Under the pieces are notes generated by a model, which worked only from the letters and a program-made list of their open reading frames with translations, did no database searches and had not been told where the DNA came from. Shown here one piece after another: positions 2,520 to 17,703 of a DNA stretch of 64,000 nt (positions are counted from its first letter, which is position 1; each line of letters starts with the position of its first letter). The translations under genes and the position numbers were made by a program. The stretch comes from an uncultured Chloroflexia bacterium (GTDB taxonomy: Bacteria; Chloroflexota; Limnocylindria; Limnocylindrales; CSP1-4). The stretch spans positions 140,566 to 204,565 of the forward strand of contig CAVQLA010000014.1 in the NCBI GenBank assembly GCA_963713285.1, in the 5' to 3' direction.

Positions 2520-3880
2520 CGGCCCGCGCCCGTCCCCGCGCCGTGCTCCTCGTGGCCAACGCGGCCGCCCCGTACTCCCGCGGCCTGCGGGTCGCGCGAA
2601 GCCTGGCCGCGGCCGGCTACGACGTCGAGATCGCGGCGGTCGCCGAGGGAGACCACCCGCTGGAGGAGCGCGACGGGGCGGTGGTGGTGAGGCGCTACCG
2701 GCCTCGCGGGCCGTGGGTGCGCCGGGCCACTCCCCCGCCGGGTCCGGCACACGGCCTCCGCCGCTGGATCATCCGGGCCCACCGGGCGCTGGGGCGGGTC
2801 GTCCCGCCGCTCCGCCGGTTCCCTGCGCCGACGCCCGAGGCGATCGCCAAGATCGCCTGGTGGCCGGTCCACGTGCGCGGCTGGTGGGCGGCGCTCGATG
2901 CCGACCTGCCGCCGGCCGACCTGTACCACGCCTTCGGGATCCTGACGATCGACGTCGCGAACCGCCTCGCCGCCCGCGCTCGCGCCGAGGGGTTCGCCGG
3001 CCGGGTGGTGTACGACGTCATCGACGTGATCCTCGACTCCAACAACTACAGCAGCGTGCCGGCCCCCATCCTCGCCTGGTACCGCCGGCGCGAGCGGCGC
3101 TGGGTCGGCCGGGCCGACGCGATCGTCACGGTGAACGAGCCGATCGCCCAGCACCTCGAGCGGGCCTGGTCGCTGCGCACGCCGCCGACGGTGCTCCTCA
3201 ACTGCCAGCCCCGCTGGACGCCGCCGGAGCCGCGTCCCGACCACATCCGCGCCGCGACCGGGATCCCGCCGGAGCGGCGGATCGTCCTGTGGCTCGGCCG
3301 GCTGGGCCGCGAGCGCGGCCTGGACGAGGCGGCGGAGGCGGTCCTGCGGCTGGACGACGCCGCGCTCGTCATGCTCGGCTGGGGCCCCTGGGCCGACCAG
3401 CTGCGCGAGCGCGACCATGACCCGCGCTTCGCCGGGCACCACTTCACGCTGCCGCCCGTCCATCCCGACGAGGTCCCGGCCTGGACCGCGTCGGCCGACG
3501 TCTCGGTGATCGCCGTCCCCGCCAACTCGCTGAACCAGCGCCTCTCGACGCCGAACAAGTTCTGGGAGTCGCTGACCGCCGGCACCCCGATCGTGCTGGG
3601 GCGCGACCTGGAGGTGATGCGCGCGATCCTCGAGGCGGACGACCTCGGGCGCACCGCGGACCCCGGGGACCCGGACGACCTCGCCCGGGCCGTGCGGGAG
3701 ATCCTGGACCGCGAGCCGGAGGCCCGCGCGGCGATGCGAGGACGCTGTCTCCGCGTCAGCCGGGAGCGCTACAACTGGGAGACCGCGGTCATCCCGTACC
3801 TCGATCTCGTCGGCCGCCCGGACGGCGGCCCCCGGCGGGACGAGCTCCCGGCCGCCCCGGGTCCGCGTCTCAGCGCTTGA
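2516..3880 (+). CDS. Glycosyltransferase, GT4 family
   Basis: GTG 2516 overlaps the upstream stop (GTGA). Reads VTARARPRAVLLVANAAAPYSRG... Has the GT-B C-terminal motif STPNKFWESLTAGTPIV. Confidence 0.75.
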   Translation: MTARARPRAVLLVANAAAPYSRGLRVARSLAAAGYDVEIAAVAEGDHPLEERDGAVVVRRYRPRGPWVRRATPPPGPAHGLRRWIIRAHRALGRVVPPLRRFPAPTPEAIAKIAWWPVHVRGWWAALDADLPPADLYHAFGILTIDVANRLAARARAEGFAGRVVYDVIDVILDSNNYSSVPAPILAWYRRRERRWVGRADAIVTVNEPIAQHLERAWSLRTPPTVLLNCQPRWTPPEPRPDHIRAATGIPPERRIVLWLGRLGRERGLDEAAEAVLRLDDAALVMLGWGPWADQLRERDHDPRFAGHHFTLPPVHPDEVPAWTASADVSVIAVPANSLNQRLSTPNKFWESLTAGTPIVLGRDLEVMRAILEADDLGRTADPGDPDDLARAVREILDREPEARAAMRGRCLRVSRERYNWETAVIPYLDLVGRPDGGPRRDELPAAPGPRLSA

Positions 3881-4766
3881 TCGTCCCGCCGTAGCGCGCG
3901 ATCTGGGCGGCCTTCTCGGCGCGCTCCCGCGCCGAGTGCTCCTGGTGGATCGCGACGACGTCGGCGGGATCGCCCTCGGCGGCGATCCGCCCGTGCTCCA
4001 GCATGATCGCCCGGTTGCAGTACTCGGTGACCCACTGCATGTCGTGGGTGACGAGCACGATCGCCTTCGCCGACCGGACCAGCTCCAGCACCCGGGCCTT
4101 CGACTTCGCGCGGAAGACCTGGTCGCCCGTCGCGAGGACCTCGTCGAGCAGCAGCACGTCCGGGTCGACCGAGGTCGCGATCGAGAAGCCGAGCCTCGCC
4201 CGCATCCCCGACGAGTACGTCTTGATGGGGGCGTCGATGAACTCGCCGAGGTCGGCGAAGGCGACGATCGGCTCGAGGCGCTCCTCGACCTCGGCCTTCG
4301 TCATGCCCAGGAAGGCTCCGGCGAGCCGGACGTTCTCGCGCCCGGTCAGGTCCTGGTCGAAGCCAGCCCCCAGGGTCAGGAGGCTCGAGATGCGGCCGTG
4401 GACGAGGATCGAGCCCTCGGACGGCATCAGGATGCCCGCGAGCGCCTGCAGGAGGGTGCTCTTCCCCGCACCGTTGGGCCCGATGACCGCGAGCGACTCG
4501 CCGTTGGTGAGGCGGAACGAGACGTCCCGGAGCGCCCAGAACTCGCGGGCCCGCGAGCGGTCGCGCCGGGCGAAGTGGGCGAAGGTCTCGCGGAGGGTCG
4601 TCTTGCGGGTGAAGCGGAGGTTGTAGCGGATCCCGAGCCCGCCGACGTCGATCGCCGGCGATCCGCCGGCCGTCCACGGCGGAGCCGCGTCGTGGTCGTG
4701 GCGGGTGATCTCCCCGAGATCCCGCGCGTCCGCCGGTCCGACGCGCGGGGGTGCCGGCTGCGCCAT
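3870..4766 (-). CDS. wzt: ABC transporter ATP-binding protein of a polysaccharide/teichoic-acid exporter (Wzt/TagH/KpsT-like), 298 aa, no C-terminal carbohydrate-binding domain
   Basis: Walker A GPNGAGKST, ABC signature YSSGMRARLGFS, Walker B LLLDEVLATGD. The start ATG overlaps the stop of the upstream permease (ATGA). The long N-terminal extension in the ORF track is spurious. Confidence 0.85.
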   Translation of the reverse strand: MAQPAPPRVGPADARDLGEITRHDHDAAPPWTAGGSPAIDVGGLGIRYNLRFTRKTTLRETFAHFARRDRSRAREFWALRDVSFRLTNGESLAVIGPNGAGKSTLLQALAGILMPSEGSILVHGRISSLLTLGAGFDQDLTGRENVRLAGAFLGMTKAEVEERLEPIVAFADLGEFIDAPIKTYSSGMRARLGFSIATSVDPDVLLLDEVLATGDQVFRAKSKARVLELVRSAKAIVLVTHDMQWVTEYCNRAIMLEHGRIAAEGDPADVVAIHQEHSARERAEKAAQIARYGGTIKR

Positions 4767-5653
4767 CACAGCACCTTCGCGAACGACGGCTCGAGGCGCT
4801 TGAAGGTGGCGATGGCCACGAGCACCAGCCCGAGCGACACCACGAGCAGGGCGCCGAGCGCGGCCCAGTCCGGGAGGAGCGGCCCACCCTCCGGCGTCCC
4901 GTAGATCACGGCGCGATAGGCCTCGAACAGGATCGCGAACGGGTTGATCCTCAGCAGCGTGAGGATCACCGGGTACTGCTGGAGCAGGTCGCTCTCCTCG
5001 AGCAGCGCGATGGAGTAGAGGCCGGGAGAGAGGTAGAACCAGAGGCGCAGCGCATGCCGGGCGATGTTCCCCACGTCGCGCACGAACACGTTGAGGGCGG
5101 CCAGCACGAGCCCCAGGGCCAGGGTGAACACCAGCTGGACGACCGCGATGACCGGGATCAGGAGGAGCGTGAGGCTGAGGCGGTCGCGGTAGAGCAGGAG
5201 CAGGAGGCCCATGAGCGGGATCATCCCGAAGGCGAAGTTGACGACGCCGGCGAAGATGCCCGCCACGGGCAGCACGATCTTCGGGAACTGGAGCTGGCGG
5301 ATCAGGCTGCCCTGGCTCACGACCGAGGTGATCGAGTCGCCGACGCTGCTGGTGAACCACTTCCAGGGGAGGATCGCGGCGAAGATGAAGAGCGGGTAGT
5401 CCGGCTGCGGACGGGCGAAGATCACCGAGACGAGGATCACGTAGACGGCCATCTGCAGGAGGGGATCCAGCACCCACCAGACGTTGCCGAGCACCGTGTC
5501 GGCGCCCTTCTTGCGGAGGTCCGCCTGGACGAGGTAGCGGATCAGCTGCCGGCGCGAGAGGGCCTCGCGGATCCCTTCGACGACGAGTCCGGGGATGCCG
5601 GGCCGGATCGCCGAGTTCTGGACGGTGACGGGCTGCGCGGCGGGAGCGGACAT
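4766..5653 (-). CDS. wzm: ABC-2 type polysaccharide exporter permease (Wzm/TagG-like)
   Basis: 295 aa with six predicted TM helices and an ABC-2 permease architecture. Immediately upstream of, and coupled to, the ATPase gene. Confidence 0.8.
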   Translation of the reverse strand: MSAPAAQPVTVQNSAIRPGIPGLVVEGIREALSRRQLIRYLVQADLRKKGADTVLGNVWWVLDPLLQMAVYVILVSVIFARPQPDYPLFIFAAILPWKWFTSSVGDSITSVVSQGSLIRQLQFPKIVLPVAGIFAGVVNFAFGMIPLMGLLLLLYRDRLSLTLLLIPVIAVVQLVFTLALGLVLAALNVFVRDVGNIARHALRLWFYLSPGLYSIALLEESDLLQQYPVILTLLRINPFAILFEAYRAVIYGTPEGGPLLPDWAALGALLVVSLGLVLVAIATFKRLEPSFAKVL

Positions 5654-6234
5654 GGGCGGCGGAAGGGTAGCACAGGATCCCGGGCGCGCCGGGCCGGCCG
5701 CCTGGGTGGCCGTCCCGGCCCCGTGCCCCGCGCACCGGCCATCCTCGCCTTTGACCAGACTATCTACTCACCAGCGCCATCCTCCAGCACGGAGGTCACG
5801 CTGAAGTGCGGGTTCGCGTTGAGTCGCACGTTCAGGACTGGCGATCCTGACGAGACTATCTGTTCAGACCGCCACGAACTGCCACGCGAAGCCGGGCGCC
5901 GCCGCAGTCGACGACCCACCGGCCCGCTGCTCCGCCGGCGGCCACACCGCGCCAACGCGGACGGCCCACGGCCGCACCCGAGCGCCGCGCACCGGGGAGC
6001 CAGCCGCCGCCCACGACTCACGGCACTCCACGGCCACGCCGCGCCGCCGCCGAGCACCCCGGGCGACGCACGCGCGTCGCCACCGGGCGCCACCAGCAGC
6101 AGGCTCCACCGGTGCCGACCGCCAGGATCACGGAGCCGACGCGGTGACAGAGTCACGGAGCGTCACGAGGGGGCCGCCGGGGTAGCATTCGATCGATGCG
6201 TTCACGTGGCGCCGGCGGCGCCCGGCCGGTCTGC

Positions 6235-7422
6235 ATGATCACCCACTCCTACTACGAGGAGGATGCCCGCGTGCGGCGGGCCGCCGAGACCCTGGTCCTG
6301 GCCGGCCACCCCGTGGACGTCTTCGCGCTGCGGCGTCCGGGCGACTCGCCCGAGGCGATGCTCGAGGGTGTCCGGCTCCACCGGCTCGACGTGCGGCGCC
6401 ACCAGGGCGCCGGCATCGCGACCTACATGGCGGAGTACCTCGCGTTCCTGGTGCGGGCCACGTTCGCGGTCACGGCCAGCCACCGCCGGCGGCGGTATGG
6501 GCTCGTCCACGTGAACACGCTGCCGGACTTCCTCGCGTTCGCCGGCCTGCCGCTGCGCCTGGCTGCCGGCGTCCCGATCCTCCTGGACCTCCACGAGGCG
6601 ATGCCCGAGTTCTTCCGGGCGCGCTTCCCGGCGCGTGCCTCGCGGCTTGCCCACGAGGCGCTGCTGCTCCAGGAGCGCGCCTCGATCGCCATCGCCGCCG
6701 CGGTCGTGACGGTCAACGACGCGCTCGTCGAGCGCCTGGTGGAGCAGGGCGTGCAGCCGGCGAAGGTCACCGTGATCCTCAACGCCCCCGACCTCCGCCG
6801 GTTCGACCCTGCGGCGCACGCCACGCGCACCTTCGCGGAGGATGGCGTGCTGCGCCTCGTGTACGCCGGTGCGCTCACTCCCACGTACGAGCTCGACGTG
6901 GTCGTCGACGCCGTCGAGCTGCTCGGGCGCCTGCGCCCGGAGCTTCGGGTCACGCTCGACCTCTACGGGCGGGGCGACAGTGAGACCGCCCTCGGCGAGC
7001 GGGTGCGCGCCCACGGGCTCGCGGATCGCATCCGGCTCCACGGCCGCATCCCGCTGGAGGACGTGCCGGCCGCCATCGCGGCCGCCGACATCGGGCTGGC
7101 GCCCACCGCGCGCACCCCCTTCACGGACATGTCGCTCTCCACGAAGCTCTTCGAGTACGCGGCGATGGGCAAGCCGGTCATCGCCAGCTCCCTGCCGACC
7201 GTGGACCGGTACTTCCCGCAGGGGACCGTGGCTCACTACGCTCCGGGGGACCCCGAGGACCTGGCGCGGGCCATCCTGGCGCTGGTCGACGATCCGATCG
7301 CCCGCGAGGCCGGCCGGGCGGCGACGGGTCGGCGGGCCGCGGAGCTCTCGTGGGACGGGCAGGCGGCGCGCTACCTTGCGCTCGTCGAGCGTCTCTGTGC
7401 CGGCCGGGGGACGCGCCGGTGA
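6235..7422 (+). CDS. Glycosyltransferase, GT4 family
   Basis: MITHSYYEEDARVRRAAETLVLAGHPVDVF... with GT-B C-terminal motif TKLFEYAAMGKPVIASSLP. ATG at 6235; an in-frame upstream codon at 6196 is also possible. Divergent from wzm. Confidence 0.75.
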   Translation: MITHSYYEEDARVRRAAETLVLAGHPVDVFALRRPGDSPEAMLEGVRLHRLDVRRHQGAGIATYMAEYLAFLVRATFAVTASHRRRRYGLVHVNTLPDFLAFAGLPLRLAAGVPILLDLHEAMPEFFRARFPARASRLAHEALLLQERASIAIAAAVVTVNDALVERLVEQGVQPAKVTVILNAPDLRRFDPAAHATRTFAEDGVLRLVYAGALTPTYELDVVVDAVELLGRLRPELRVTLDLYGRGDSETALGERVRAHGLADRIRLHGRIPLEDVPAAIAAADIGLAPTARTPFTDMSLSTKLFEYAAMGKPVIASSLPTVDRYFPQGTVAHYAPGDPEDLARAILALVDDPIAREAGRAATGRRAAELSWDGQAARYLALVERLCAGRGTRR

Positions 7423-7612
7423 CCGGTCCCGGGGTGGGTCGCGACCGCCCGGCCTCCCGGGAAGGCGCGCGAGGCGGCAGAATGCGGGCTCGACCGGCAA
7501 CCGGTCGCCGGCCGGCCGGCGCGACGTCGTCCCCCGACGCGTCGGCCGCGGCGCCGCGCGGGACAGCACCGGCCGAGCGCCCGGGTTCGGGCGGCATGCC
7601 ACGGGAGGTCAG

Positions 7613-8929
7613 GTGATCCAGGAAGCATCGCCCGCGGATCGGCGCATCGCCGTCGTCGGGCTCGGGTATGTCGGTCTGCCGCTTGCCCTGGCGTTCGTCG
7701 AATCGGGCACCACCGTGGCCGGGCTCGACGCCAGCCCGAGCCGCGTGGCCGAGCTGGCCGCCGGGCACTCGCCGATCGAGGACGTCCCCGACGCGCGGCT
7801 GGCGGCGGCCCTCGCGGCCGGCTTCCGGCCGGTCGGGCCCGAGCCCTCCGAGATCGCCGCGGCGGACGCGGTCTTCGTCTGCGTCCCGACGCCCGTCACG
7901 GCCACCAAGGACCCCGACCTCGGGCCCGTGCTGGCGGCGGCGGAGCTCGTGCGGGCGGGGCTCCGGGCGGGGCAGCTGGTGGTCCTCCAGTCCACGACCT
8001 TCCCGGGCACGACCACGGGCGCCTTCCGCGCCGCCCTCGAGCGCGAGAGCGGGCTCGTCGCGGGCGTCGACTTCGACCTCGCCTTCGCCCCCGAGCGCGT
8101 CAACCCGGGCGACCCGGCCAGCTCCGGCAAGGCCGTGCCACGGCTGGTCGGCGGCCTCACGCCGCCCGCCACGACCCGCGCGGCCGCCCTGCTGCGCCGC
8201 ATCAACGACACCGTGGTCGAGCTCTCGTCGCCGGACGCCGCGGAGCTCGCGAAGCTCCACGAGAACGTGTTCCGGAACGTCAACATCGCCCTCGTCAACG
8301 AGCTCGCCCTCCTGTGCGAGCGGATGGGCCTCGACGTCTGGGAGATCATCGACGCGGCGGCCACGAAGCCGTTCGGGTTCATGAAGTTCACGCCCGGCCC
8401 CGGCGTCGGCGGCCACTGCATCCCCGTGGACCCGTACTACCTCGCGTGGCGTGCCCGCGAGTTCGACTTCAACGACCGCTTCGTCGAGCTCGCCGCCGAC
8501 GTCAACGTCGGCATGCCGCGCCACGTGGTCGACCTTGCCGCCGAGGCGCTCAACGACCGGGCACGCGCGCTGCGTGGCGCCCGGGTGGGGGTCGTCGGCG
8601 TGGCCTTCAAGCCCAACGTCGGCGACGCCCGCGAGTCGCCGGCTGCCGACGTCCTGGCCGGGCTGCGCGAGCGCGGCGCCGACGTCCGCTACCACGATCC
8701 GCACGTGGAGCGCTTCCGCGACGGCGCCGGCACCGAGAGCACGTCGGTGCCCCTCGCGGACCTGCTCGGCTGGGCCGAGATCGTCATCGTCGTGACCCCC
8801 CACGCCGCCGTGGACTGGGAGGCCGTCTACGGGCGGGCCGACCTCGTCCTCGACACCGTCAACTCCTCGCGCGGCCACCCGGTCCGCCCCCGCCAGGTCC
8901 TCCGCCTGGGTGCGGGGTGGAGCACCTGA
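7613..8929 (+). CDS. Nucleotide-sugar dehydrogenase (UDP-glucose/GDP-mannose dehydrogenase family; WecC/Cap5O-like UDP-ManNAc dehydrogenase is plausible)
   Basis: N-terminal Rossmann motif IAVVGLGYVGLPLALAF and catalytic-Cys motif GGHCIPVDP. GTG 7613 is preceded by GGGAGG. Confidence 0.85.
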   Translation: MIQEASPADRRIAVVGLGYVGLPLALAFVESGTTVAGLDASPSRVAELAAGHSPIEDVPDARLAAALAAGFRPVGPEPSEIAAADAVFVCVPTPVTATKDPDLGPVLAAAELVRAGLRAGQLVVLQSTTFPGTTTGAFRAALERESGLVAGVDFDLAFAPERVNPGDPASSGKAVPRLVGGLTPPATTRAAALLRRINDTVVELSSPDAAELAKLHENVFRNVNIALVNELALLCERMGLDVWEIIDAAATKPFGFMKFTPGPGVGGHCIPVDPYYLAWRAREFDFNDRFVELAADVNVGMPRHVVDLAAEALNDRARALRGARVGVVGVAFKPNVGDARESPAADVLAGLRERGADVRYHDPHVERFRDGAGTESTSVPLADLLGWAEIVIVVTPHAAVDWEAVYGRADLVLDTVNSSRGHPVRPRQVLRLGAGWST

Positions 8930-10950
8930 CGGTGGCCTCGCGACTGGTGCTGGTCGCCGCCGCCGAGGCGGCACCGCGCCCGGCGCCGGACGCGCGCGTC
9001 GTGGTCCTCGACACCGCCTGGACGCCGGGACCGGGCGACCGCGCGGACCTGGTCCCGCTGCGCCCGGCGGTGGCCGCCGCCCTGGAGCGGGAGGACCTGA
9101 TCGACCGGGCCATCGACCTCGTGGACGCCTGGGCCGCGCGCCTCGCCCTCGCCGAGCGGTCCACGTTCCGGGGCGTCAGCTGGTGGCCTCGCCGCGAGGC
9201 CTGGAAGTGGCTCGTCGGGAGCCTGCAGTGGCGCTCGATCCTCGACGAGGTGCTCCGCGACGCGGCGGCCATCGGCGTCGCGATCGACGAGCTGGTCGTG
9301 CCGCCCGGCGACGAGGCGCTCGCGCGCGCCGCCGCCGCCCTCGCCGCGGAGCATGGCCTGCAGGCGACCCGGGATGCCGGGGAGGGCCCGGCCGGGAGCG
9401 CCGCCGACGACCCGGGGGGCGACCCGCCCGGGGTCGCCGCTGCCGCCGCGTCCGGCCTGGGCGACCGGGTCCTCTGGCGCCTGGGCCGGCATCCGCGCCA
9501 GGTCCGCAAGCGCGAGCTCGACCGCCGCGCCGCGTTCCTGGCCGCCCGTGCCGAGCGCCTCGCGGCGGCGGGCGGGGGGCGCCTGCTCGTCATCACCGTG
9601 CCGCGGGTCCACCAGCGGATCGGCGGTGGCGACGCGCCGCTCGTCGACCCGTTCCTCGGCCCGGTGGTCGATCGCCTCCGGGGGACACGGCTCGACCCGA
9701 TCACGATCGCCCTCGGGCTCGACCGCGGCGACGACGCGGCATGGCCGGCGATCGAGGCCGACGAGCGGCTGCTCGCGGAGGCGTTCCTCCCGGCCCGCTG
9801 GTCCACCCTCGAGGACGACACGGCCGCGGCGGCGGCCGCGGCGGCGATCGGCCGAGCGCTCGACGAGGTGACGCCCGCCGACGCGGAAGGGGGAGACCTC
9901 GGCCATCTCGGCGCGGGCCTGCTCGAGGAGGTGCGCCGCGACGCCCGGACCCTCCTGGCCGCCCGGCTGCGGAAGGCGCTCCGGTTCGAGCGGTTCCTGC
10001 GCGAGCTCCGGCCGGCCGGGCTCCTCCTCTACAACGAGTACGGGCGGCTCGACTGGCTGGCGGGAGCGCGCTGGGCCGGGGTGCCGGTCGTCGCCGTCCA
10101 GCACGGCATCATCATCCCGGGCCACGTCGGCTACCGCCACGCCCGCCATCCCGGCCTCGTCCTCCCCGCCCGCACCTGCGTGTTCGGGCCGTACGAGGCG
10201 GGCGTCCTCCGCGACCACGGCGGCTACGCACCCGGGGAGGTCGTCGTCACCGGCTCGCCGCGGCCGGCGGCCGGGGTCGATGCGGCCTCGGCCGGGCCGC
10301 GGGCCGGCCTGCCGGCGGGCGCGCCCGCTCCGGCAGGCGTGCCCGCTGACGATGCCGGGCGGGCGCGCGAGCGCGACGACGTCCGGCGCGAGCTCGGCGT
10401 CGCCGACGGGGATCGCCTGCTCGTGATCTCCACGACCCGCGACCCGGACCTGCGACGGTTCCACCAGGACCATGCGTTCGCCCGCCTCCTGGACGGTCCG
10501 CTGCCCGGCGTGCACCTCGTCTTCAAGCAGCACCCCGCCGAGCCCGACCGCGGCGACTACGAGCGCCTGGTGGCGGGCCTGGCCCGCGCCGGCGGCTATC
10601 CGCCCCCGCCCGTCTCCGTCGTCCGCGACGTCGACCTCTACCGCCTCCTCCGGGCGGCCGACGCCCACCTCGGCCTCTACTCCACCGTCCTCACCGACGC
10701 CGTCGTGGCGGGAACCCCGAACCTCGTGGCGATCACCCAGGCCCGGGCCGACCTCCTCGGCTACGTCGCGGCAGGCGTCGCCGCGCCGGTTCGGACGCAC
10801 GCCGATCTGCGGGCCGCGCTGGAGGCGCCCCCGGTGCCCGATCCGGCCGCGCGCCGGGCGTTCCTCGACGACCACTTCCTGCCCGGCGATGGGACGGCCC
10901 GGATCGCCGACGCGGTGCTCGCCGTAACGGAGCTGGAGGTCCGCGGATGA
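8917..10950 (+). CDS. TagB/TagF- or KpsC/KpsS-like GT-B transferase with a K-x-HP motif; candidate CMP-keto-acid or polyol-phosphate transferase
   Basis: C-terminal half carries HLVFKQHPAEP and LGLYSTVLTDAVVAGTPNLVAI, which match the CDP-glycerol glycerophosphotransferase / capsule_synth pattern. GTG 8917 overlaps the dehydrogenase stop. Confidence 0.55.
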   Translation: MEHLTVASRLVLVAAAEAAPRPAPDARVVVLDTAWTPGPGDRADLVPLRPAVAAALEREDLIDRAIDLVDAWAARLALAERSTFRGVSWWPRREAWKWLVGSLQWRSILDEVLRDAAAIGVAIDELVVPPGDEALARAAAALAAEHGLQATRDAGEGPAGSAADDPGGDPPGVAAAAASGLGDRVLWRLGRHPRQVRKRELDRRAAFLAARAERLAAAGGGRLLVITVPRVHQRIGGGDAPLVDPFLGPVVDRLRGTRLDPITIALGLDRGDDAAWPAIEADERLLAEAFLPARWSTLEDDTAAAAAAAAIGRALDEVTPADAEGGDLGHLGAGLLEEVRRDARTLLAARLRKALRFERFLRELRPAGLLLYNEYGRLDWLAGARWAGVPVVAVQHGIIIPGHVGYRHARHPGLVLPARTCVFGPYEAGVLRDHGGYAPGEVVVTGSPRPAAGVDAASAGPRAGLPAGAPAPAGVPADDAGRARERDDVRRELGVADGDRLLVISTTRDPDLRRFHQDHAFARLLDGPLPGVHLVFKQHPAEPDRGDYERLVAGLARAGGYPPPPVSVVRDVDLYRLLRAADAHLGLYSTVLTDAVVAGTPNLVAITQARADLLGYVAAGVAAPVRTHADLRAALEAPPVPDPAARRAFLDDHFLPGDGTARIADAVLAVTELEVRG

Positions 10951-12710
10951 CCCTGCCGGTGCTCTTCCTGGTCCCGGCGCGCGGCGGCAGTGTCCGCGTC
11001 CCGGGGAAGAACCTGCGATCGGTGGCGGGCATCCCCCTCGTGGCGCACGGCGTGCGGATCGCGCGGGCGGCAGCGGCCCGAACCCCGGGCGGTCCCCACG
11101 CGGTGGCCTGCAGCACGGACGACCCCGCCATCGCGGCCGTCGCCCGCGCGTGGCATGCGGAGATCCCCTTCGAGCGCCCGGCCGCGCTCGCCGGGCCCGA
11201 CGCGTCGTCGGTCGACGTGGCCCTCCACGCCCTGGAGACCCTCGCGGCCCGCGGGCGCCGGTTCCGCGCCATCGTGCTCGTCCAGCCGACCTCACCCCTC
11301 GCCGATCCCGGCGATATCGCCGCGGCGGTCGCCGCGCTCGACGCCGACGGGGCGCCCGTCACGAGCGTCGTCGCCGCTCACCCGGTGGCCTGGCACGTCG
11401 CGCTCGACGCGGACCGGCGCCTGCGCCCGGTCGACGGAGATGCCCGCCACCTCCTGGCGGGGGCCTTCTACGCCATCACGCCCGGGGAGCTGGCGACGGC
11501 CCGGGCCTTCGTCGTTCCCGGCCGGACGCGCGGGCTGGAGGTGGCGGCCGCGACGGCGGTCGACATCGACACGGAGAACGACCTCGCCGTCGCCCGGGCG
11601 CTCGCGGCCTCGCGCCCCGTGCCGCCCGTCGCACTGGCGGGCCGCTCGATCGGGGATGGCCCCTGCTTCGTGATCGCCGAGGGCGGCGTCAACCACGACG
11701 GCGACCCGGCGCGCGCCCACCGGCTCGTCGACGCGGCGGCCGACGCGGCGGCCGACGCCGTGAAGTTCCAGGCGTTCGACCCGGCGCTCCTCGCCGCGGC
11801 CGGCGCCCCGCTGGCCGACTACCAGCGGGCGGCGGGCGAGACCGGGGCCGACCAGCGGGCGATGCTGGCCCGGCTCGCGCTTCCCGCCGGGGCGTGGCCC
11901 GGCCTCCGCGACCACGCCCACGACCGCGGCCTCGTCTTCCTGGCGAGCCCCTTCGACGAGCCGTCGGCGGACCTCCTGGAGGCGCTCGGGATCCCGGCGT
12001 TCAAGGTTGGCTCGGGCGAGCTCACGAACCTCCCGTTCCTCGAGCGGCTGGCGGGCGTCGGGCGGCCGCTCCTCGTCTCCACGGGGATGGCCACGCTGGT
12101 CGAGGTGGCCGATGCCCTCGACGCGATCGCGGGCAGCGGCGACCCGCCGGTGGCGCTTCTCCACTGCGTCTCCGCCTACCCGGCCGACCCGGCGGAGGCG
12201 AACCTCCGCGCGATCGCCACGTTGCGCGCCGCCTTCGGCCGCCCGTCCGGCTGGTCCGACCACACCCCAGGGATCGAGCTGCCCACGGCGGCGGCGGCCC
12301 TGGGCGCCGACCTCCTCGAGAAGCACCTGACGCTCGATCGGTCGCTGCCGGGTCCGGACCACCGGGCGTCGCTCGAGCCGGCCGAGATGACGGCCCTCGT
12401 CCGGGCCGTGCGCACCGTCGAGGTGGCCCGGGGCGACGGCGAGAAGGCGCCGTCCGCGGCGGAGCTGGCCGTGGCGGCGGTGGCCCGCAAGAGCCTCCAC
12501 TGGGCCCGGGCCCTCGCGGCCGGGGCCGCGGTCACGCCGGCCGACCTCGTCGCCCAGCGACCCGGGACGGGGCTGCCGCCCGGCGAGCGCGACCTCGTGA
12601 TCGGGCGCCGCACGAGGCGGCCCGTGCCGGCCGGCAGCCTCGTGACGCTCGCCGACGTCGAGGGCGACGTCGGGGCCGGCGTCGGGGCCGGCGGGGAGCC
12701 GCCCGCATGA
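10947..12710 (+). CDS. Bifunctional fusion: N-terminal CMP-nonulosonate cytidylyltransferase (NeuA/LegF-like) and C-terminal nonulosonate synthase (NeuB/LegI-like, PEP-dependent, with SAF domain)
   Basis: N-terminus LFLVPARGGSVRVPGKNL matches the CTP_transf_3 family. The C-terminal half has FVIAEGGVNHDGD...ADAVKFQAFD, FKVGSGELTNLPFLE and SDHTPGIELP (NeuB motifs), plus a SAF-like tail. ATGA overlap with the upstream gene. Confidence 0.85.
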   Translation: MTLPVLFLVPARGGSVRVPGKNLRSVAGIPLVAHGVRIARAAAARTPGGPHAVACSTDDPAIAAVARAWHAEIPFERPAALAGPDASSVDVALHALETLAARGRRFRAIVLVQPTSPLADPGDIAAAVAALDADGAPVTSVVAAHPVAWHVALDADRRLRPVDGDARHLLAGAFYAITPGELATARAFVVPGRTRGLEVAAATAVDIDTENDLAVARALAASRPVPPVALAGRSIGDGPCFVIAEGGVNHDGDPARAHRLVDAAADAAADAVKFQAFDPALLAAAGAPLADYQRAAGETGADQRAMLARLALPAGAWPGLRDHAHDRGLVFLASPFDEPSADLLEALGIPAFKVGSGELTNLPFLERLAGVGRPLLVSTGMATLVEVADALDAIAGSGDPPVALLHCVSAYPADPAEANLRAIATLRAAFGRPSGWSDHTPGIELPTAAAALGADLLEKHLTLDRSLPGPDHRASLEPAEMTALVRAVRTVEVARGDGEKAPSAAELAVAAVARKSLHWARALAAGAAVTPADLVAQRPGTGLPPGERDLVIGRRTRRPVPAGSLVTLADVEGDVGAGVGAGGEPPA

Positions 12711-13867
12711 CGCGCCGGGTCGCCGTTCTCACGACCGGCCGCCAGGACTGGGGCCTCCTGCGCTCCACGTGCGTGGCGCTCCGCGACGCGCACGGCGCCG
12801 AGGTCCTGGTGCTGGCCGGGGGGATGCACCTGAGCGGGCGCCACGGCAGGCCGATCGCGGCGGTGCGCGAGGACGGCTTCGAGCCGGCGGCGGAGATGCC
12901 CTGGCTGGGCGTCGACGCCGCCGCGGACCCCCCGGCCCACCGCCAGGCGGGCGCGGCGCTGGTGGCCGTGGGCGACGCGCTCGCCCGCCTGGACCCCGAT
13001 GCGCTCGTCGTCGCCGGGGATCGCCTCGAGACGGCCGCCGCCGCGCTGGCCGCGACCGTGGGACGCGTCCCCCTCGTCCATCTCCACGGCGGCGAGCAGA
13101 CGGGCGGCGCCTTCGACGACGCCCTGCGCCACGCGATCACGAAGCTGGCCCACCTCCACCTCGTCAGCCACGCCGAGCACGCCCGCCGCGTGATCGCCCT
13201 GGGCGAGGATCCCGCGACGGTGCACGTGATCGGACCCCCCGGGGTCGACGCCCTGGCGCGCCCGGACCTCCCCGGCCGAGCGGAGCTGGAGGCCGACCTC
13301 GGGATCGCCCTCGCGCCCCCGCTGGTCGTCGTCACCGTGCACCCGGCGACGCTCGACGCGGACCCCGCCGCGGTCGCTGCCCCGGTCGTGGCGGCGATGG
13401 GCGCCGTCGCGGCGACCTATGTCGTCACCCTGCCCAACAGCGATCCCGGCGGCGACGCGATCCGGGCTGCGCTCCTGGCGCACGCCGCCGGGCGCCCCGG
13501 CACGGTCGCCGTCGTCCCGGCGCTCGGCGAGCGTCGCTACTGGGGCCTCCTGCGCCTCGCCGACGCGATGCTCGGCAACAGCTCGAGCGCGATCGTCGAG
13601 GCGCCGGCGGTCGACCTCCCCGCGGTCGACGTCGGGGACCGCCAGGAGGGCCGCCGCCGGGAGGCCAACGTCATCCACGCCCTGTCCGACCCGGACGCCG
13701 TGGAGCGCGCCCTTCGCCGGGCGCTCGAGCCCGGGTACCGGGCGGCCGTCCGCGCTGCCCGCCCGCCCCTCGCCGACGGCCGGGCCGGCGAGCGTGCCGC
13801 CCGTATCATCGCGGCATGGCAGCCCTCCCGACCGCCGCGCAAGGCGCCCATCCCGGTGGACGGGTGA
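12707..13867 (+). CDS. Hydrolysing UDP/GDP-N-acetylglucosamine 2-epimerase (NeuC/LegG-like)
   Basis: MTRRVAVLTTGRQDWG...HLHGGEQTGGAFDDALRHAITKLAHLHL, the Epimerase_2 hydrolysing subtype. ATGA overlap with the upstream gene. Confidence 0.85.
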   Translation: MTRRVAVLTTGRQDWGLLRSTCVALRDAHGAEVLVLAGGMHLSGRHGRPIAAVREDGFEPAAEMPWLGVDAAADPPAHRQAGAALVAVGDALARLDPDALVVAGDRLETAAAALAATVGRVPLVHLHGGEQTGGAFDDALRHAITKLAHLHLVSHAEHARRVIALGEDPATVHVIGPPGVDALARPDLPGRAELEADLGIALAPPLVVVTVHPATLDADPAAVAAPVVAAMGAVAATYVVTLPNSDPGGDAIRAALLAHAAGRPGTVAVVPALGERRYWGLLRLADAMLGNSSSAIVEAPAVDLPAVDVGDRQEGRRREANVIHALSDPDAVERALRRALEPGYRAAVRAARPPLADGRAGERAARIIAAWQPSRPPRKAPIPVDG

Positions 13868-14529
13868 TGCCGCGGCGGCTGGTGGTCCTGGGCGGGGGCG
13901 AGCACGCCCGGGTCGTCGTCGACGCGGCGCGGTCCGCCGTCCCCGGCTGGGATGTCGTCGGGATCGTCGATCCGGGAGCCGCGGAGCGCACGCGGACGCT
14001 CCTCGCGGTCGAGCACCTGGGCGACGACGCGGCGTTCGCCGCCGCGCTGGACGGGATGCGGCCGGCCGAGCGACCGCACCTCGTGCTGGGGCTGGGCGCG
14101 ATGGGCGATCCCGCGGCGCGCCGTGCCCTGGTCGCCCGCTACGAGGGCCGCGCGCCGTGGGCCACGCTCGTCCACGGGGCCGCCTGGGTCGCCCCGTCGG
14201 CCACCCTCGGGCCGGGCGCCGTCATCCTCGCGGGTGCCGTGGTCAACGCGGGCGCCGACGTCGGCGACCACGCTGTCGTCAACAGCGGCGCGATCCTCGA
14301 GCACGACGCGGTCCTCGGCGCGTTCGCCCAGCTGGCGCCGGGCGCGGTCGTCGGCGGCGCCGCGGTCGTCGAGGCGGACGCCTACGTCGCGATCGGCGCG
14401 CTCGTGCGCGACCACGTGACCGTGGGCCGCGGCGCGGTGGTGGGAATGGGCGCGGCCGTCGTGGCCGACGTGCCGGAGGATGCGGTCGTCGTCGGCGTCC
14501 CGGCCCGGCGCCGAGAGGCGTCCCGGTGA
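13867..14529 (+). CDS. Hexapeptide-repeat sugar N/O-acetyltransferase (NeuD/LegH/PglD-like)
   Basis: N-terminal Rossmann-like LVVLGGGEHARVVVD, followed by left-handed beta-helix hexapeptide repeats (GAVVNAGADVGDHAVVNSGAILEHD...). ATG overlaps the NeuC stop. Confidence 0.8.
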   Translation: MPRRLVVLGGGEHARVVVDAARSAVPGWDVVGIVDPGAAERTRTLLAVEHLGDDAAFAAALDGMRPAERPHLVLGLGAMGDPAARRALVARYEGRAPWATLVHGAAWVAPSATLGPGAVILAGAVVNAGADVGDHAVVNSGAILEHDAVLGAFAQLAPGAVVGGAAVVEADAYVAIGALVRDHVTVGRGAVVGMGAAVVADVPEDAVVVGVPARRREASR

Positions 14530-15569
14530 GCGACCGGATCAGCCCGGCCCTCGTGCCCGTCGAGGGCTCACTCCGCGATGCCATGCGGGCGCTCGACGTG
14601 GGCGCCCTGCGCATCGCCCTCGTCGTCGACGGGGAGGGGCGGCTCGTCGGCGTGACCACCGACGGCGACGTCCGCCGCGCGCTCCTCTCCGGCGTCCGCC
14701 TCGACGATCCCCTCGGCCCGCACGTGACGCGCGCGTTCACGGCCGTCACGCCGCGCGACGGCCGGGCCGACGTGATCGACCTGATGCGGGCCCGGCACAT
14801 CGGGGCCGTCCCGGTCCTCGACGACGCCGGCCGGCCGGTGGCGCTCCACCTCCTGGACGAGGCCCTGGCCCCGGCGGAGCGCACGACCTGGGCGGTGGTG
14901 ATGGCCGGCGGCCGGGGCGTCCGCCTCCGTCCCCTCACCGAGAACGTCCCCAAGCCGATGCTGCGCGTCGCCGGGCGGCCGATCCTCGAGCGGATCGTCC
15001 TGCACCTCGTCGGTCACGGCATCACCCGGATCCACCTCGCCATCGGCTACCTCGGGGACAGGATCGAGGAGCACTTCGCGGACGGCAGCCGCTTCGGGGC
15101 CCGGATCTCGTACCTCCGCGAGGACGAGCCGCTGGGCACCGGCGGCGCCCTCGGCCTCCTGCCCGAGCTGCCCCGCGAGCCGCTCCTCGTGATGAACGGC
15201 GACCTCGTCACCCAGGCCGACCTGGGCGCCCTGCTCGACGTCCACGCCGCGCGGGGAGACGTCGCGACGATCGGCGTCCGGCGCTACGTCCACGCCGTCC
15301 CGTTCGGCTGCGTCGAGCGCGCCGGGGACCGCATCGTCGGGCTCGAGGAGAAGCCGACGCTCACGCGCGACGTGAACACCGGCATCTACGCCCTGGCGCC
15401 CGGGCTCGTCGCGCGGGTCGAGCGCGGGCGGCCGGTCGGGATGCCCGACCTCATCGGCGATGCCCTCGCGCGCGGCGAGCCCGTGGGCGCCTTCGAGATC
15501 GAGGACGACTGGATCGACGTCGGGCAGCGCGAGCAGCTCGACCGCGCCCGCGGAGGTGGCGACGCATGA
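14526..15569 (+). CDS. CBS-domain sugar-phosphate nucleotidyltransferase (PtmE-like, putative GlcN/GlcNAc-1-P guanylyltransferase)
   Basis: Tandem CBS pair (LRIALVVDGEGRLVGVTTDGDVRRAL...) followed by an NTP_transferase core WAVVMAGGRGVRLRPLTENVPKPML. GTG overlaps the upstream stop. Confidence 0.8.
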   Translation: MSDRISPALVPVEGSLRDAMRALDVGALRIALVVDGEGRLVGVTTDGDVRRALLSGVRLDDPLGPHVTRAFTAVTPRDGRADVIDLMRARHIGAVPVLDDAGRPVALHLLDEALAPAERTTWAVVMAGGRGVRLRPLTENVPKPMLRVAGRPILERIVLHLVGHGITRIHLAIGYLGDRIEEHFADGSRFGARISYLREDEPLGTGGALGLLPELPREPLLVMNGDLVTQADLGALLDVHAARGDVATIGVRRYVHAVPFGCVERAGDRIVGLEEKPTLTRDVNTGIYALAPGLVARVERGRPVGMPDLIGDALARGEPVGAFEIEDDWIDVGQREQLDRARGGGDA

Positions 15570-16559
15570 CCCTGCGCGACGTGCCCGTGCTCGTCACCGG
15601 CGCGGACGGCTTCATCGGCAGCCACCTCGTGGAGCGCCTTGTCGCGGAGGGCGCCCGCGTGCGGGCGTTCTGCCTCTACACGTCCCGCGGGAGCTGGGGC
15701 TGGCTCGACGAGGCCCCGCCGGACGTGCGCGCCGCGCTCGACGTGCGGCTCGGGGACGTCCGCGACGCCCGCTTCGTCGCCGAGGCGACGGACGGCGTCG
15801 AGGTGGTCTTCCACCTCGCGGCGCTCATCGCGATCCCGTACTCGTACACGGCGCCCGAATCGTTCGTCGACACGAACGTTCGCGGCACCCTCAACGTCCT
15901 CGAGGCGGCCCGAAGGACGGCGGTCCGGCGCGTGATCGTCACGAGCACCAGCGAGGTCTACGGCACGCCGGAGATCCTCCCGATCACCGAGGCCCACCCG
16001 CTCAACGCGCAGTCCCCGTACGCGGCGACCAAGGTGGCGGCCGACCAGCTGGCGCTTGCCTACCACCGCAGCTACGGGGTGCCGGCCGTCATCCTCCGGC
16101 CGTTCAACACGTACGGCCCGCGCCAGTCCGCGCGGGCCGTCCTGCCCACGATGCTCCGCCAGCTGCTCGCCGGCCGGACCCAGGTGCGCCTGGGCCGCCT
16201 GGATCCGCGCCGCGACCTCACGTACGTCGCCGACACCGTGGACGGGTTCGTCCGCGCGGCGACGGCGGCAGGGATCGACGGCGCGACGATCCAGCTCGGG
16301 ACGGGCGGCACCGAGTCGATCGCGGAGCTGTTCGCGCGTGCCTGCCGCCTGCTCGGCGTCGACGCGGTCGCGGTCGAGGATGCCGGGCGCCTGCGGCCCG
16401 ACGCCAGCGAGGTCCTGGCCCTGCAAGTCGGACCCGTCCCGGGCCCGGGAGCTGCTCGGCTGGACGGCGACGACCAGCCTGGACGCGGGCCTCCGGGAGA
16501 CCATCGCCTGGCTCCGCGCCCACCCCGAGCCCGGCGACGTCGACCGTGTCCAGCTCTGA
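15566..16559 (+). CDS. NAD-dependent sugar nucleotide 4,6-dehydratase/epimerase (LegB-like SDR), apparent +1 frameshift near nt 16430
   Basis: MTLRDVPVLVTGADGFIGSHLV..., YxxxK in PYAATKVAAD. The reading frame switches after EVLALQ to continue DPSRARELLGWTATTSLDAGLRETIAWLRAHPE and ends at 16559. ATGA overlap with the upstream gene, GGAGG RBS. Confidence 0.7.
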
Positions 16560-17703
16560 CGCTCGCCGGCGGATCCCGCTCGCGGAGCCGACGCTGGGGG
16601 GCAACGCCGAGCGCTACCTGCGCGAGTGCCTCGCCACGAACTTCGTCTCTTCGGTGGGGCCGTTCGTCGAGCGTTTCGAGCGCGAGTTCGCCGCCGCCGT
16701 CGGCAGCCGCCACGCCGTCGCGTGCTCCTCGGGCACGGCCGCCCTCCACCTGGCGATGCGGGTCCTCGACGTCGGGCCCGGCGACGAGGTCTTCGTCCCG
16801 ACCCTGACCTTCGTCGCCTCCGCCAACCCGATCCGCTACGAACGCGCGACCCCGGTCCTCGTCGACGTCGAGGAGGAGACCCTCAACCTGGACCCCGGCA
16901 TCGTCGCCGACGAGCTCGCCCGCCGGGCTCGCCTGGGCCTGCGGCAGCCCAGGGCGATCGAGGTCGTCCACCTCGTGGGCCACCCCGCGGACATCGTCCC
17001 GCTCCTCGATGCCGCCGCGCGCCACGGGGTGCCGGTCATCGAGGACGCCTCCGAGGCGCTCGGGGCGACGTACCGGGGCGGGAGCCTCGACGGGCGCTCC
17101 GTGGGCACGCTGGGGCGCGTCGGCTGTTTCAGCTTCAACGGCAACAAGATCATCACCACCGGCGGCGGGGGGATGGTGACGACCGACGACGAGGCCCTCG
17201 CCCGGCGCGCGCGCCACCTCTCGACGCAGGCCCGGCTTCCCGGCCGGGCGTACGACCACGACGAGGTCGGGTACAACTACCGGCTCACCAACCTCGCCGC
17301 GGCCCTCGGGGTGGCGCAGCTCGAGCTGCTCCCCGACCTCCTCGCCGCCCGGCGGGCCGTGGCCTCCCGCTACGACACGGCGCTCGCGGCGGCGCCCCTC
17401 CTGCGCCCCGCTCCGCGGGCGCCGTGGGCCGATCCCAGCTTCTGGCTCTACACCGCCCGGCTGGCGGCACCCGACGCCGCGGTGCGCGACCGGGTGCTGG
17501 ATGCCCTCGCGGCCCGCGCCATCGACGCCCGGCCGATCTGGACGCCGATCCACGCCCTGGCGCCGTACGCGGATGCGCCGCGCCTCGGCGGCGCGGTCGC
17601 CGAGCGGATCTTCGCCGCGGCGCTCAGCCTGCCCTCGTCCTCGTCGCTCGCCCCTGCCGACCAGGACCGCGTGGTGGAGGCGCTGCGCGTCGCGCTCGCC
17701 TGA
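16546..17703 (+). CDS. DegT/DnrJ/EryC1/StrS-family PLP-dependent sugar aminotransferase (LegC/PseC-like)
   Basis: IPLAEPTLGGNAERYLRECLATNFVSSVGPFVERFE..., with the PLP-lysine region FSFNGNKIITTGGGGMV. Confidence 0.85.
   Translation: MSSSDARRRIPLAEPTLGGNAERYLRECLATNFVSSVGPFVERFEREFAAAVGSRHAVACSSGTAALHLAMRVLDVGPGDEVFVPTLTFVASANPIRYERATPVLVDVEEETLNLDPGIVADELARRARLGLRQPRAIEVVHLVGHPADIVPLLDAAARHGVPVIEDASEALGATYRGGSLDGRSVGTLGRVGCFSFNGNKIITTGGGGMVTTDDEALARRARHLSTQARLPGRAYDHDEVGYNYRLTNLAAALGVAQLELLPDLLAARRAVASRYDTALAAAPLLRPAPRAPWADPSFWLYTARLAAPDAAVRDRVLDALAARAIDARPIWTPIHALAPYADAPRLGGAVAERIFAAALSLPSSSSLAPADQDRVVEALRVALA

Follow-up and report, generated by a model that had tools for sequence, protein, structure and literature searches.

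The legF-legI fusion gene and its operon

We analyzed a 64-kb stretch of DNA (the window) in which one gene encodes a CMP-nonulosonate synthetase domain followed by NeuB and SAF domains. Its plus-strand translation starts with ATG and runs through 587 codons with zero internal stops; this ATG is preceded, 7 nt away, by the Shine-Dalgarno sequence GGAGG. GC3 stayed at 0.93-0.99 in one frame across 10961-12640, the junction at ~11613-11633 included. A preliminary description had stated that neither a stop nor a frameshift separates the two domains; the single ORF and the single GC3 frame uphold this. Scanning the junction for an internal start of a separate NeuB revealed no Shine-Dalgarno plus start signal, and production of a separate NeuB by internal translation initiation was dismissed on this ground. 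The fusion gene is the sole CTP_transf_3 or NeuB homologue within the window, and the identical 587-aa protein has already been deposited in NCBI/ENA.

The fusion gene lies in a co-directional, translationally coupled operon in the order legF-legI fusion, legG, legH, ptmE-like, legB and legC. Its stop codon overlaps the legG start, so that ATGA overlaps flank the gene on both sides. Neither Pfam, relaxed to E = 5, nor NCBIfam nor a sequence search of the PDB produced a match to the upstream 678-aa ORF; at the equivalent position, locus L081 has a 657-aa gene, also without a Pfam match. PtmE is part of the GDP-linked Leg route (PMC5378307), and all five members of that gene set (LegB, LegC, an N-acetyltransferase, LegG and a PtmE-like protein) are encoded directly downstream on the same strand. 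The NeuC and NeuD profiles scored above their cutoffs; LegB and LegC were the best matches of their genes yet fell below theirs (397 versus 475 and 397.9 versus 420 bits, respectively). The set is not intact here: legB matches profile positions 1-279 of 297 only, and its C-terminus resumes in the +1 frame. Because legB is frameshifted, the pathway may be inactive in the source genome if the indel is real. The operon order is repeated in loci L081, L082 and L083, and L082 contains an intact 331-aa LegB. An additional stand-alone CTP_transf_3 gene adjoins oxidoreductases in L082.

Table 1. Positions of the fusion gene, its domains and the neighboring genes in the window
Feature	Coordinates	Strand	Basis
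ORF, ~660-678 aa, no family match, start uncertain	8914..10950	+	stop overlaps fusion start (ATGA)
legF-legI fusion gene, 587 aa (CMP-nonulosonate synthetase domain + NeuB + SAF)	10947..12710	+	ORF, Pfam, NCBIfam, GC3
Cytidylyltransferase (LegF/NeuA-like) domain, residues 1-222	10947..11612	+	Pfam, PseF profile, motifs, Foldseek
Hinge RPVPPVA, residues 223-229	11613..11633	+	fixed length, AF2 pLDDT, substitution pattern
NeuB TIM-barrel nonulosonate synthase (LegI-like), residues 230-507	11634..12467	+	Pfam, TIGR03569, aligned residues, Foldseek
SAF (antifreeze-like) domain, residues 517-572	12495..12662	+	Pfam; R538 aligned with NmNeuB R314
legG/neuC-type hydrolysing NDP-sugar 2-epimerase	12707..13867	+	TIGR03568, 325 bits (cutoff 235.9); Pfam Epimerase_2
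legH/PglD/NeuD-family N-acetyltransferase	13864..14529	+	TIGR03570, 174.7 bits (cutoff 160.8); PglD_N + Hexapep
ptmE-like, CBS + nucleotidyltransferase, putative GlcN-1-P guanylyltransferase	14526..15569	+	Pfam CBS + NTP_transferase
legB 4,6-dehydratase, 1-nt frameshift near 16424	15566..16559	+	TIGR04180 LegB, 397 bits
legC aminotransferase	16546..17703	+	TIGR04181, 397.9 bits; Pfam DegT_DnrJ_EryC1, E = 1.8e-102

The two enzyme halves and their junction

The assignment of a cytidylyltransferase in front of a synthase with a SAF domain, made earlier from the sequence, was borne out by Pfam (CTP_transf_3, NeuB and SAF) and by NCBIfam profile search, and both domains are complete. In the N-terminal half, CTP_transf_3 (PF02348) aligned to residues 7-136 with 48.5 bits (cutoff 22.6), and the domain span was taken as ~5-222. 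This match reaches profile positions 2-119 of 217 only; the PseF profile aligned to residues 8-218 over positions 3-218 of its 222, and the cytidylyltransferase domain is therefore full length. The PseF equivalog (TIGR03584) cutoff was missed (85.9 versus 205.7 bits). The motif quoted in the preliminary description, LFLVPARGGSVRVPGKNL, was located at residues 6-23. The PARGGSxRxPxKN (R12, S15, R17, K21 and N22), QPTSP (Q113, T115 and P117) and VDID (D206 and D208) motifs are invariant across 63 family members. The P-loop, QPTSP and Mg-binding DxD motifs line up with the corresponding motifs in NmCSS and mouse CSS. Foldseek matched the N-terminal half to 6ifd, 1eyr and 9ftb with target-normalised TM scores of ~0.8. 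Residues ~141-170, the sugar-binding and dimerisation subdomain, are variable in the family and were modelled less confidently by AF2, with pLDDT 75-86.

The C-terminal half matched NeuB (PF03102) at residues 260-500 with 268.8 bits (cutoff 22.1, E = 5.3e-80), covering profile positions 1-241 of 241. In NCBIfam, TIGR03569 (NeuB_NnaB) scored 359.9 bits compared with 238.6 for PseI. The score lies below the N-acetylneuraminate synthase equivalog cutoff of 399.65, and we therefore do not class the protein with the Neu5Ac synthases; gene context points to a LegI identity for this half. Alignment placed E245, K273/Q275 and K353/S356/E358 opposite NmNeuB E25, K53/Q55 and K129/S132/E134, and Y411, S437/H439, E458/H460 and D471 opposite Y186, S213/H215, E234/H236 and D247. 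In NmNeuB, H215 and H236 are the metal-binding histidine pair, and E25, K53, K129 and E134 are the catalytic Glu and Lys residues. The catalytic motif residues of this half are invariant in 63 homologues, and Foldseek gave a target-normalised TM score of 0.90 against 1xuu. The SAF domain scored 35.3 bits (cutoff 21); its R538-P539-G542 is invariant and aligned with the 'RPG' motif of NmNeuB, in which R314 is reportedly the SAF-domain arginine completing the active site of the partner chain.

The hinge between the halves is constant in length, without indels in the 44 relatives displayed, and has the consensus ARP(V/I)R-P. Substitutions among relatives fall mostly at third codon positions throughout residues 200-260, in both halves and the junction. 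The AF2 model of the fusion had a pLDDT of 93.9 and a pTM of 0.89, with pLDDT 94-97 in the 221-240 blocks around the hinge. No solved chain found by Foldseek spans both halves, the best query-normalised TM being 0.55. The model suggests rigid packing of the two domains.

Spread and origin of the fusion

The survey of relatives proposed in the preliminary description was run, and the rarity that the description implied proved mistaken: of the top 120 database clusters, at 59-94% identity and from many independent assemblies, 119 contain both domains. At 50% identity there are at least 42 full-length fused clusters, with end-to-end matches in 42 of the best 150 representatives. Their MAGs bear the labels of at least seven groups at phylum level, one archaeon included; among named relatives, MAGs of Chloroflexota and Candidatus Limnocylindrales are the closest. 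The fusion is conserved and polyphyletic, and it has been gained or retained in several lineages. Some fused proteins carry the JGI label 'sialic acid synthase SpsE/CMP-N-acetylneuraminic acid synthetase', while the NCBI label, 'N-acetylneuraminate synthase family protein', names the synthase half alone. A full-text literature search turned up no paper in which a natural fusion of NeuA with NeuB, or of LegF with LegI, is described. The fusion, common in environmental microbes and present in public databases, is uncharacterised rather than surprising.

Loci retrieved by tblastn were sorted into fused and unfused by an HMM-based classification; high-GC DNA holds long spurious ORFs. In unfused relatives, legF lies directly upstream of legI, with an ATGA overlap or a single in-frame stop at the junction. 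Since the genes are adjacent and their stop and start codons overlap or are in frame, the fusion arises easily. Single-stop junctions in frame made up 8 of 20 adjacent legF-legI pairs against a chance expectation of about one third; we do not claim stop-codon readthrough at these junctions. We propose that the fusion was born when the stop codon between adjacent, translationally coupled legF and legI was lost, which would suffice to explain its origin without any kinetic benefit. Close relatives show fused, overlapping and in-frame single-stop states, which makes the family well suited to work on how genes fuse and split and on whether fusion brings a kinetic benefit.

Predicted function and comparison with known systems

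The protein is probably a real bifunctional enzyme, a member of a large uncharacterised LegF-LegI fusion family that arose by stop-codon loss and serves Leg synthesis and CMP activation. We infer both enzymatic activities and the identity of the sugar. The downstream ptmE-like, legB, legC, legH and legG products would supply the sugar precursor; the NeuB and SAF half would condense a 2,4-diacetamido-2,4,6-trideoxy-hexose with phosphoenolpyruvate into a legionaminic-acid-type nonulosonate, and the cytidylyltransferase half would use CTP to activate the nonulosonate with CMP, ready for a glycosyltransferase. The predicted product is most likely Leg5Ac7Ac and then CMP-Leg5Ac7Ac. The fusion would ensure 1:1 co-expression and co-localisation for the last two steps of the pathway.

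The fusion may also bring a kinetic benefit. In a channelling mechanism, which the preliminary description had suggested, rigidly packed domains would pass the free nonulosonate from the synthase to the cytidylyltransferase, and the kinetic benefit would maintain the fusion; we consider this possible but rather unlikely. The hinge is short, conserved and constant in length, and the pTM together with the junction pLDDT implies a defined inter-domain arrangement; such a short, fixed and confidently modelled junction is compatible with proximity effects. That several lineages gained or kept the fusion also speaks for a benefit. Against it, separate genes serve many close relatives, and losing the stop codon that separates two overlapping genes is a mechanistically trivial event that might be almost neutral. 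Both NmNeuB and NmCSS are reportedly homodimers with partner-chain residues in their active sites, and the geometry of a monomer model therefore says little about channelling. It is similarly doubtful that Leg5Ac7Ac is handed directly between the halves and that this was independently evolved or retained in several phyla for a real kinetic or protective advantage. If it were so, a single natural polypeptide would generate CMP-legionaminic acid and could serve glyco-engineering.

It is less likely still that the N-terminal domain does not carry out the LegF step, being dead, regulatory or specific for another sugar, or that the product is Neu5Ac, 8-epi- or 4-epi-legionaminic acid or another derivative. 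The NCBIfam scores for NeuB_NnaB, PseF, LegB and LegC all lie under the equivalog cutoffs, and the exact substrate is therefore putative. The truncated CTP_transf_3 match, the variable sugar-binding subdomain and the extra cytidylyltransferase gene of L082 point the same way. A dead domain is opposed by the invariant P-loop, QPTSP and DxD motifs. Also against these readings, the window contains no second cytidylyltransferase, and its combination of LegB and LegC with a PtmE-like protein and a hydrolysing 2-epimerase is the hallmark of the GDP-linked Leg pathway (PMC5378307). Least of all do we credit an assembly or sequencing artefact merging adjacent genes through a missed stop codon or indel: the legB frameshift makes indel errors in this assembly conceivable and one base separates unfused relatives from the fused state, but an independent JGI metagenome (L083) holds the 587-aa fusion at 94% identity and an NCBI MAG (L081) holds it at 85%, nearly all top clusters are fused, the junction length is fixed and the coding-type substitution pattern spans the junction. 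An assembly chimera was ruled out by the same recurrence and substitution pattern.

The bifunctional LegF-LegI reading has practical consequences. The NCBI name covers the synthase only. Any survey that expects NeuA or LegF to have a gene of its own would wrongly count Limnocylindria-type Chloroflexota, and other lineages bearing the fusion, as lacking a complete pathway. A one-chain enzyme converting a 6-carbon precursor, PEP and CTP into CMP-legionaminic acid would, if the reading is true, be handy for chemoenzymatic synthesis. The practical value is modest, and known nonulosonate biosynthesis is not overturned.

That the two enzymes are normally encoded separately, as the preliminary description held, is true of the characterised systems of C. 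jejuni (legI, Cj1327; legF, Cj1331) and T. forsythia (BFO_1066 and BFO_1063, respectively) (PMC5378307). The same two reactions are predicted here, with a synthase of the NeuB family and a cytidylyltransferase of the CTP_transf_3 type, and LegB, LegC, LegH/PglD, LegG and PtmE genes likewise accompany them. Those enzymes are separate polypeptides whose genes do not adjoin; in the present protein both belong to a single 587-aa chain, and the enzyme of the later step occupies its N-terminus. The folds match those of N. meningitidis NeuB (1XUU/1XUZ) and CMP-Neu5Ac synthetase (1EYR), and the catalytic and metal-binding residues are conserved, but identity is only 27-28%, NmNeuB N184 is replaced by serine (S409), and in place of ManNAc the protein probably takes a 6-deoxy sugar with two N-acetyl groups.

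Other natural fusions are known in nonulosonate pathways. Mammalian GNE is an epimerase/kinase fusion. The Leptospira NeuB-phosphatase was the only natural fusion that our literature search found described (PMC3438082), and E. coli K1 NeuA is, as cited in PMC6137143, a synthetase-esterase fusion (Liu et al., 2004). Like these three, the present protein joins adjacent pathway activities in one ORF; the partner domains differ, and none of the three pairs a synthase with a CMP-synthetase. Database proteins built like the present fusion have the identical domain order, a length of ~575-590 aa and the same junction, and there is no difference in kind between them and the protein described here.

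Architecture and proposed activity of the fusion

The fusion gene is a 587-codon ORF with an ATG start, zero internal stops and a Shine-Dalgarno-type GGAGG 7 nt 5' of the ATG. Because G+C in the region is 78%, long spurious ORFs are frequent; the codon-position GC plot (GC3 0.93-0.99 in one frame throughout 10961-12640, no frame switch at the junction) was decisive for the coding frame. At the domain boundary, no start codon is accompanied by a Shine-Dalgarno motif. The claim of the preliminary description that both domains share one polypeptide with no stop between them was thus borne out, and domain annotation confirmed the N-terminal cytidylyltransferase and the full NeuB and SAF domains behind it. 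The N-half covers only the first half of the Pfam CTP_transf_3 profile; the NCBIfam PseF profile aligned over positions 3-218 of 222 to residues 8-218, so the cytidylyltransferase domain is complete. The synthase half scored below the equivalog cutoffs of both NeuB_NnaB (359.9 bits) and PseI (238.6 bits) in NCBIfam.

An AF2 model from an alignment of 63 homologues had a mean pLDDT of 93.9 and a pTM of 0.89. Foldseek matched the C-half to Neisseria meningitidis NeuB (NmNeuB; target-normalised TM 0.90) and the N-half to CMP-Neu5Ac, CMP-Pse and CMP-Kdn synthetases (∼0.8); no solved chain spanning both halves was returned by Foldseek or sequence search (top query-normalised TM 0.55). The P-loop (R12, S15, R17, K21, N22), QPTSP (Q113, T115, P117) and DxD (D206, D208) residues of the N-half are invariant in 63 family members and align with the motif positions of the N. 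meningitidis (NmCSS) and mouse CMP-Neu5Ac synthetases. In the C-half, E245, K273/Q275, K353/S356/E358, Y411, S437/H439, E458/H460, D471 and R538 align with NmNeuB E25, K53/Q55, K129/S132/E134, Y186, S213/H215, E234/H236, D247 and R314, respectively. We take these residues to have the roles described in the NmNeuB and NmCSS structure papers. The sole substitution relative to NmNeuB is Ser (S409) for N184, a position that is also Ser in the 6ncs sequence and Ala in SpsE (1vli). Residues ∼141-170, with the lowest conservation and model confidence (pLDDT 75-86), correspond to the subdomain that, in CMP-sialic acid synthetases, builds the dimer and the sugar-binding lid.

The fusion is best supported as a bifunctional enzyme for the last two pathway steps, which would give equimolar co-expression and co-localisation of both activities. 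That the later-acting enzyme is at the N-terminus is most probably a legacy of an ancestral legF-then-legI gene order. Substrate channelling between the halves is rather doubtful: the high pTM and well-ordered hinge suggest that the domain packing of the model is fixed, but each parent enzyme is a homodimer whose chains share active sites.

Authenticity and distribution of the fusion

An identical protein is present in the public NCBI/ENA collection (204,872-bp contig). The same 587-aa protein is found at 94% identity on an independent JGI metagenome contig (L083), where the neighbouring genes are the same and overlap alike, and an NCBI Chloroflexota MAG (L081) carries the fusion at 85% identity. 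Differences from the window at codon positions 1, 2 and 3 number 18, 21 and 65 for L083 and 50, 49 and 167 for L081; within residues 200-260 they number 2, 1 and 7 and 9, 4 and 18, respectively. This third-position bias indicates a single frame under purifying selection through the junction. In a database of 5.8 billion proteins, PF02348 and PF03102 occur together in 119 of the best 120 clusters, and lengths are 560-646 aa in all 120. The junction is of constant length across the 44 relatives displayed, with zero indels and a conserved ARP(V/I)R-P hinge that leads straight into the NeuB N-terminal β-strand. An assembly artefact was rejected on the independent contig and MAG, the fixed junction and the coding-type substitutions, and the fusion stands as real and free of a frameshift at the junction, as initially proposed.

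The survey of relatives found the architecture to be recurrent. When 1.84 billion representatives at 50% identity were scanned exhaustively with HMMER, 4076 proteins reached E ≤ 1e-30; among the best 150 of these, at least 42 (hand count) matched the query end to end (∼550-605 aa, identity down to 35%), and roughly 15 more were junction-spanning fragments or two-stretch matches. A junction-spanning profile was also run against one genome per GTDB species and the ORFs were classified by HMM. This gave 10 single-ORF fusions, all in MAGs, labelled Candidatus Limnocylindrales (two), Chloroflexota bacterium, Anaeromyxobacter, Archangium, Gemmatimonadales, Ramlibacter, Phycisphaerae, Thermoplasmata archaeon and unclassified bacterium. 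Separate ORFs with legF directly 5' of legI were found at 18 loci, for example in Paenibacillus azoreducens, Clostridium aestuarii, Aporhodopirellula rubra, Prosthecobacter and Neptunomonas. One Actinomycetota MAG (L035) has two separate adjacent neuA-neuB pairs on one 7-kb contig. Other NeuB homologues bear different large N- or C-terminal extensions (P0176, 743 aa; P0221, 963 aa; P0236, 724 aa with the NeuB match at residues 388-720; P0266 and P0271, ∼545 aa; P0217; P0178), and the synthase appears to be fused to various partners in nature.

Unfused legF/legI junctions show either an ATGA stop-start overlap or an in-frame arrangement with one stop and a few codons between, so one substitution or 1-nt indel interconverts the fused and unfused states. 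At loci L006, L009, L012, L014, L017 and L032 the genes are in the same frame, one stop and 4-9 codons apart, and the fused state is one mutation away; L013 and L034 have more than one stop between in-frame genes. In-frame pairs (8 of 20 adjacent pairs versus about one third by chance) are not clearly enriched. Fused sequences were monophyletic in 0 of 200 neighbour-joining bootstraps of the synthase domain, each replicate containing at least three separate all-fused clades (mode 5-6), an event count that is only indicative given the crude tree and small sampling. Junction sequences vary by lineage; the Ramlibacter fusion lacks the N-terminal hairpin, and the Phycisphaerae fusion (L020, 7920-9950) has ∼100-160 extra residues within or after the cytidylyltransferase domain. 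These data point to repeated fusion or fission.

Genomic context and comparison with known pathways

The fusion gene sits within a co-directional, closely packed run that extends from the GT4 glycosyltransferase gene at 6196-7422 to legC, with ATGA overlaps at both ends of the fusion gene, and no further NeuA or NeuB homologue was found within the 64-kb window.

Features of the fusion protein and its locus
Feature	Position	Strand	Remark
Upstream glycan gene	28-1020	+	
Upstream glycan gene	2324-3880	+	
Upstream glycan gene	4766-5653	-	
GT4 glycosyltransferase	6196-7422	+	
UDP-ManNAc-dehydrogenase-like NDP-sugar dehydrogenase	∼7610-8929	+	
Unannotated ORF, ∼660-678 aa	∼8914-10950	+	strong coding GC3
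Fusion	10947-12710	+	
CTP_transf_3	residues 7-136		48.5 bits, above Pfam gathering cutoff
NeuB	residues 260-500		268.8 bits, entire profile, above Pfam gathering cutoff
SAF	residues 517-572		35.3 bits, above Pfam gathering cutoff
NeuC/LegG-type hydrolysing 2-epimerase	12707-13867	+	TIGR03568 above cutoff
NeuD/PglD-family acetyltransferase	∼13864-14529	+	above cutoff
CBS + NTP_transferase (PtmE architecture)	∼14526-15569	+	
LegB	15566-16559	+	TIGR04180 top match; 1-nt frameshift
LegC	downstream of LegB	+	TIGR04181 top match
2886-aa ORF	33080-41740	-	strong coding signal, GC3 0.94

A relative with 64% identity on a 2.69-Mb contig (L082) likewise has the order fusion-legG-legH-ptmE-legB-legC. Pathway completion identifies the C-half as LegI and the N-half as LegF; the assignment of the exact sugar is provisional because LegB, LegC, NeuB and PseF scores fall below equivalog cutoffs. 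In legB, with the indel near 16424-16426, the main frame reads ...RLRPDASEVLALQ, then nonsense to 16807, and the conserved C-terminus SDPSRARELLGWTATTSLDAGLRETIAWL...VQL* resumes in the +1 frame (stop at 16557-16559). LegB of L082 is intact (331 aa). Either the assembly carries an indel here, or legB is a true pseudogene, which would block the pathway. L082 also carries a stand-alone 237-aa CTP_transf_3 gene (7128-7841, minus strand), divergent from the fusion and with GFO_IDH_MocA and short-chain dehydrogenase genes on its flanks; it may mark a second CMP-sugar pathway.

The ∼660-678-aa ORF, whose stop overlaps the fusion start (ATGA), had zero matches in Pfam, NCBIfam and PDB sequence searches; its position in L081 is occupied by a 657-aa gene with no Pfam match. 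It is a candidate CMP-Leg-dependent transferase or polymerase. The five upstream glycan genes comprise a WecB-type non-hydrolysing UDP-GlcNAc 2-epimerase, two GT4 glycosyltransferases, an ABC-2 transporter permease and the dehydrogenase-like gene; the locus probably assembles and exports a glycan with ManNAcA plus the nonulosonate.

Our full-text literature search found no description of a natural NeuA-NeuB or LegF-LegI fusion. Some members carry the JGI name 'sialic acid synthase SpsE/CMP-N-acetylneuraminic acid synthetase'; the architecture is already catalogued in databases, and the window fusion therefore counts as one ordinary member of a fusion family that is widespread and uncharacterised. 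A natural NeuB-phosphatase fusion has been described in Leptospira, with mammalian GNE cited as an analogy (PMC3438082). The window gene set matches the one that C. jejuni and T. forsythia use in their GDP-linked legionaminic acid pathway, but LegI and LegF are separate proteins there (PMC5378307), in agreement with the earlier statement that nonulosonate synthase and CMP-nonulosonate synthetase are usually separate genes.
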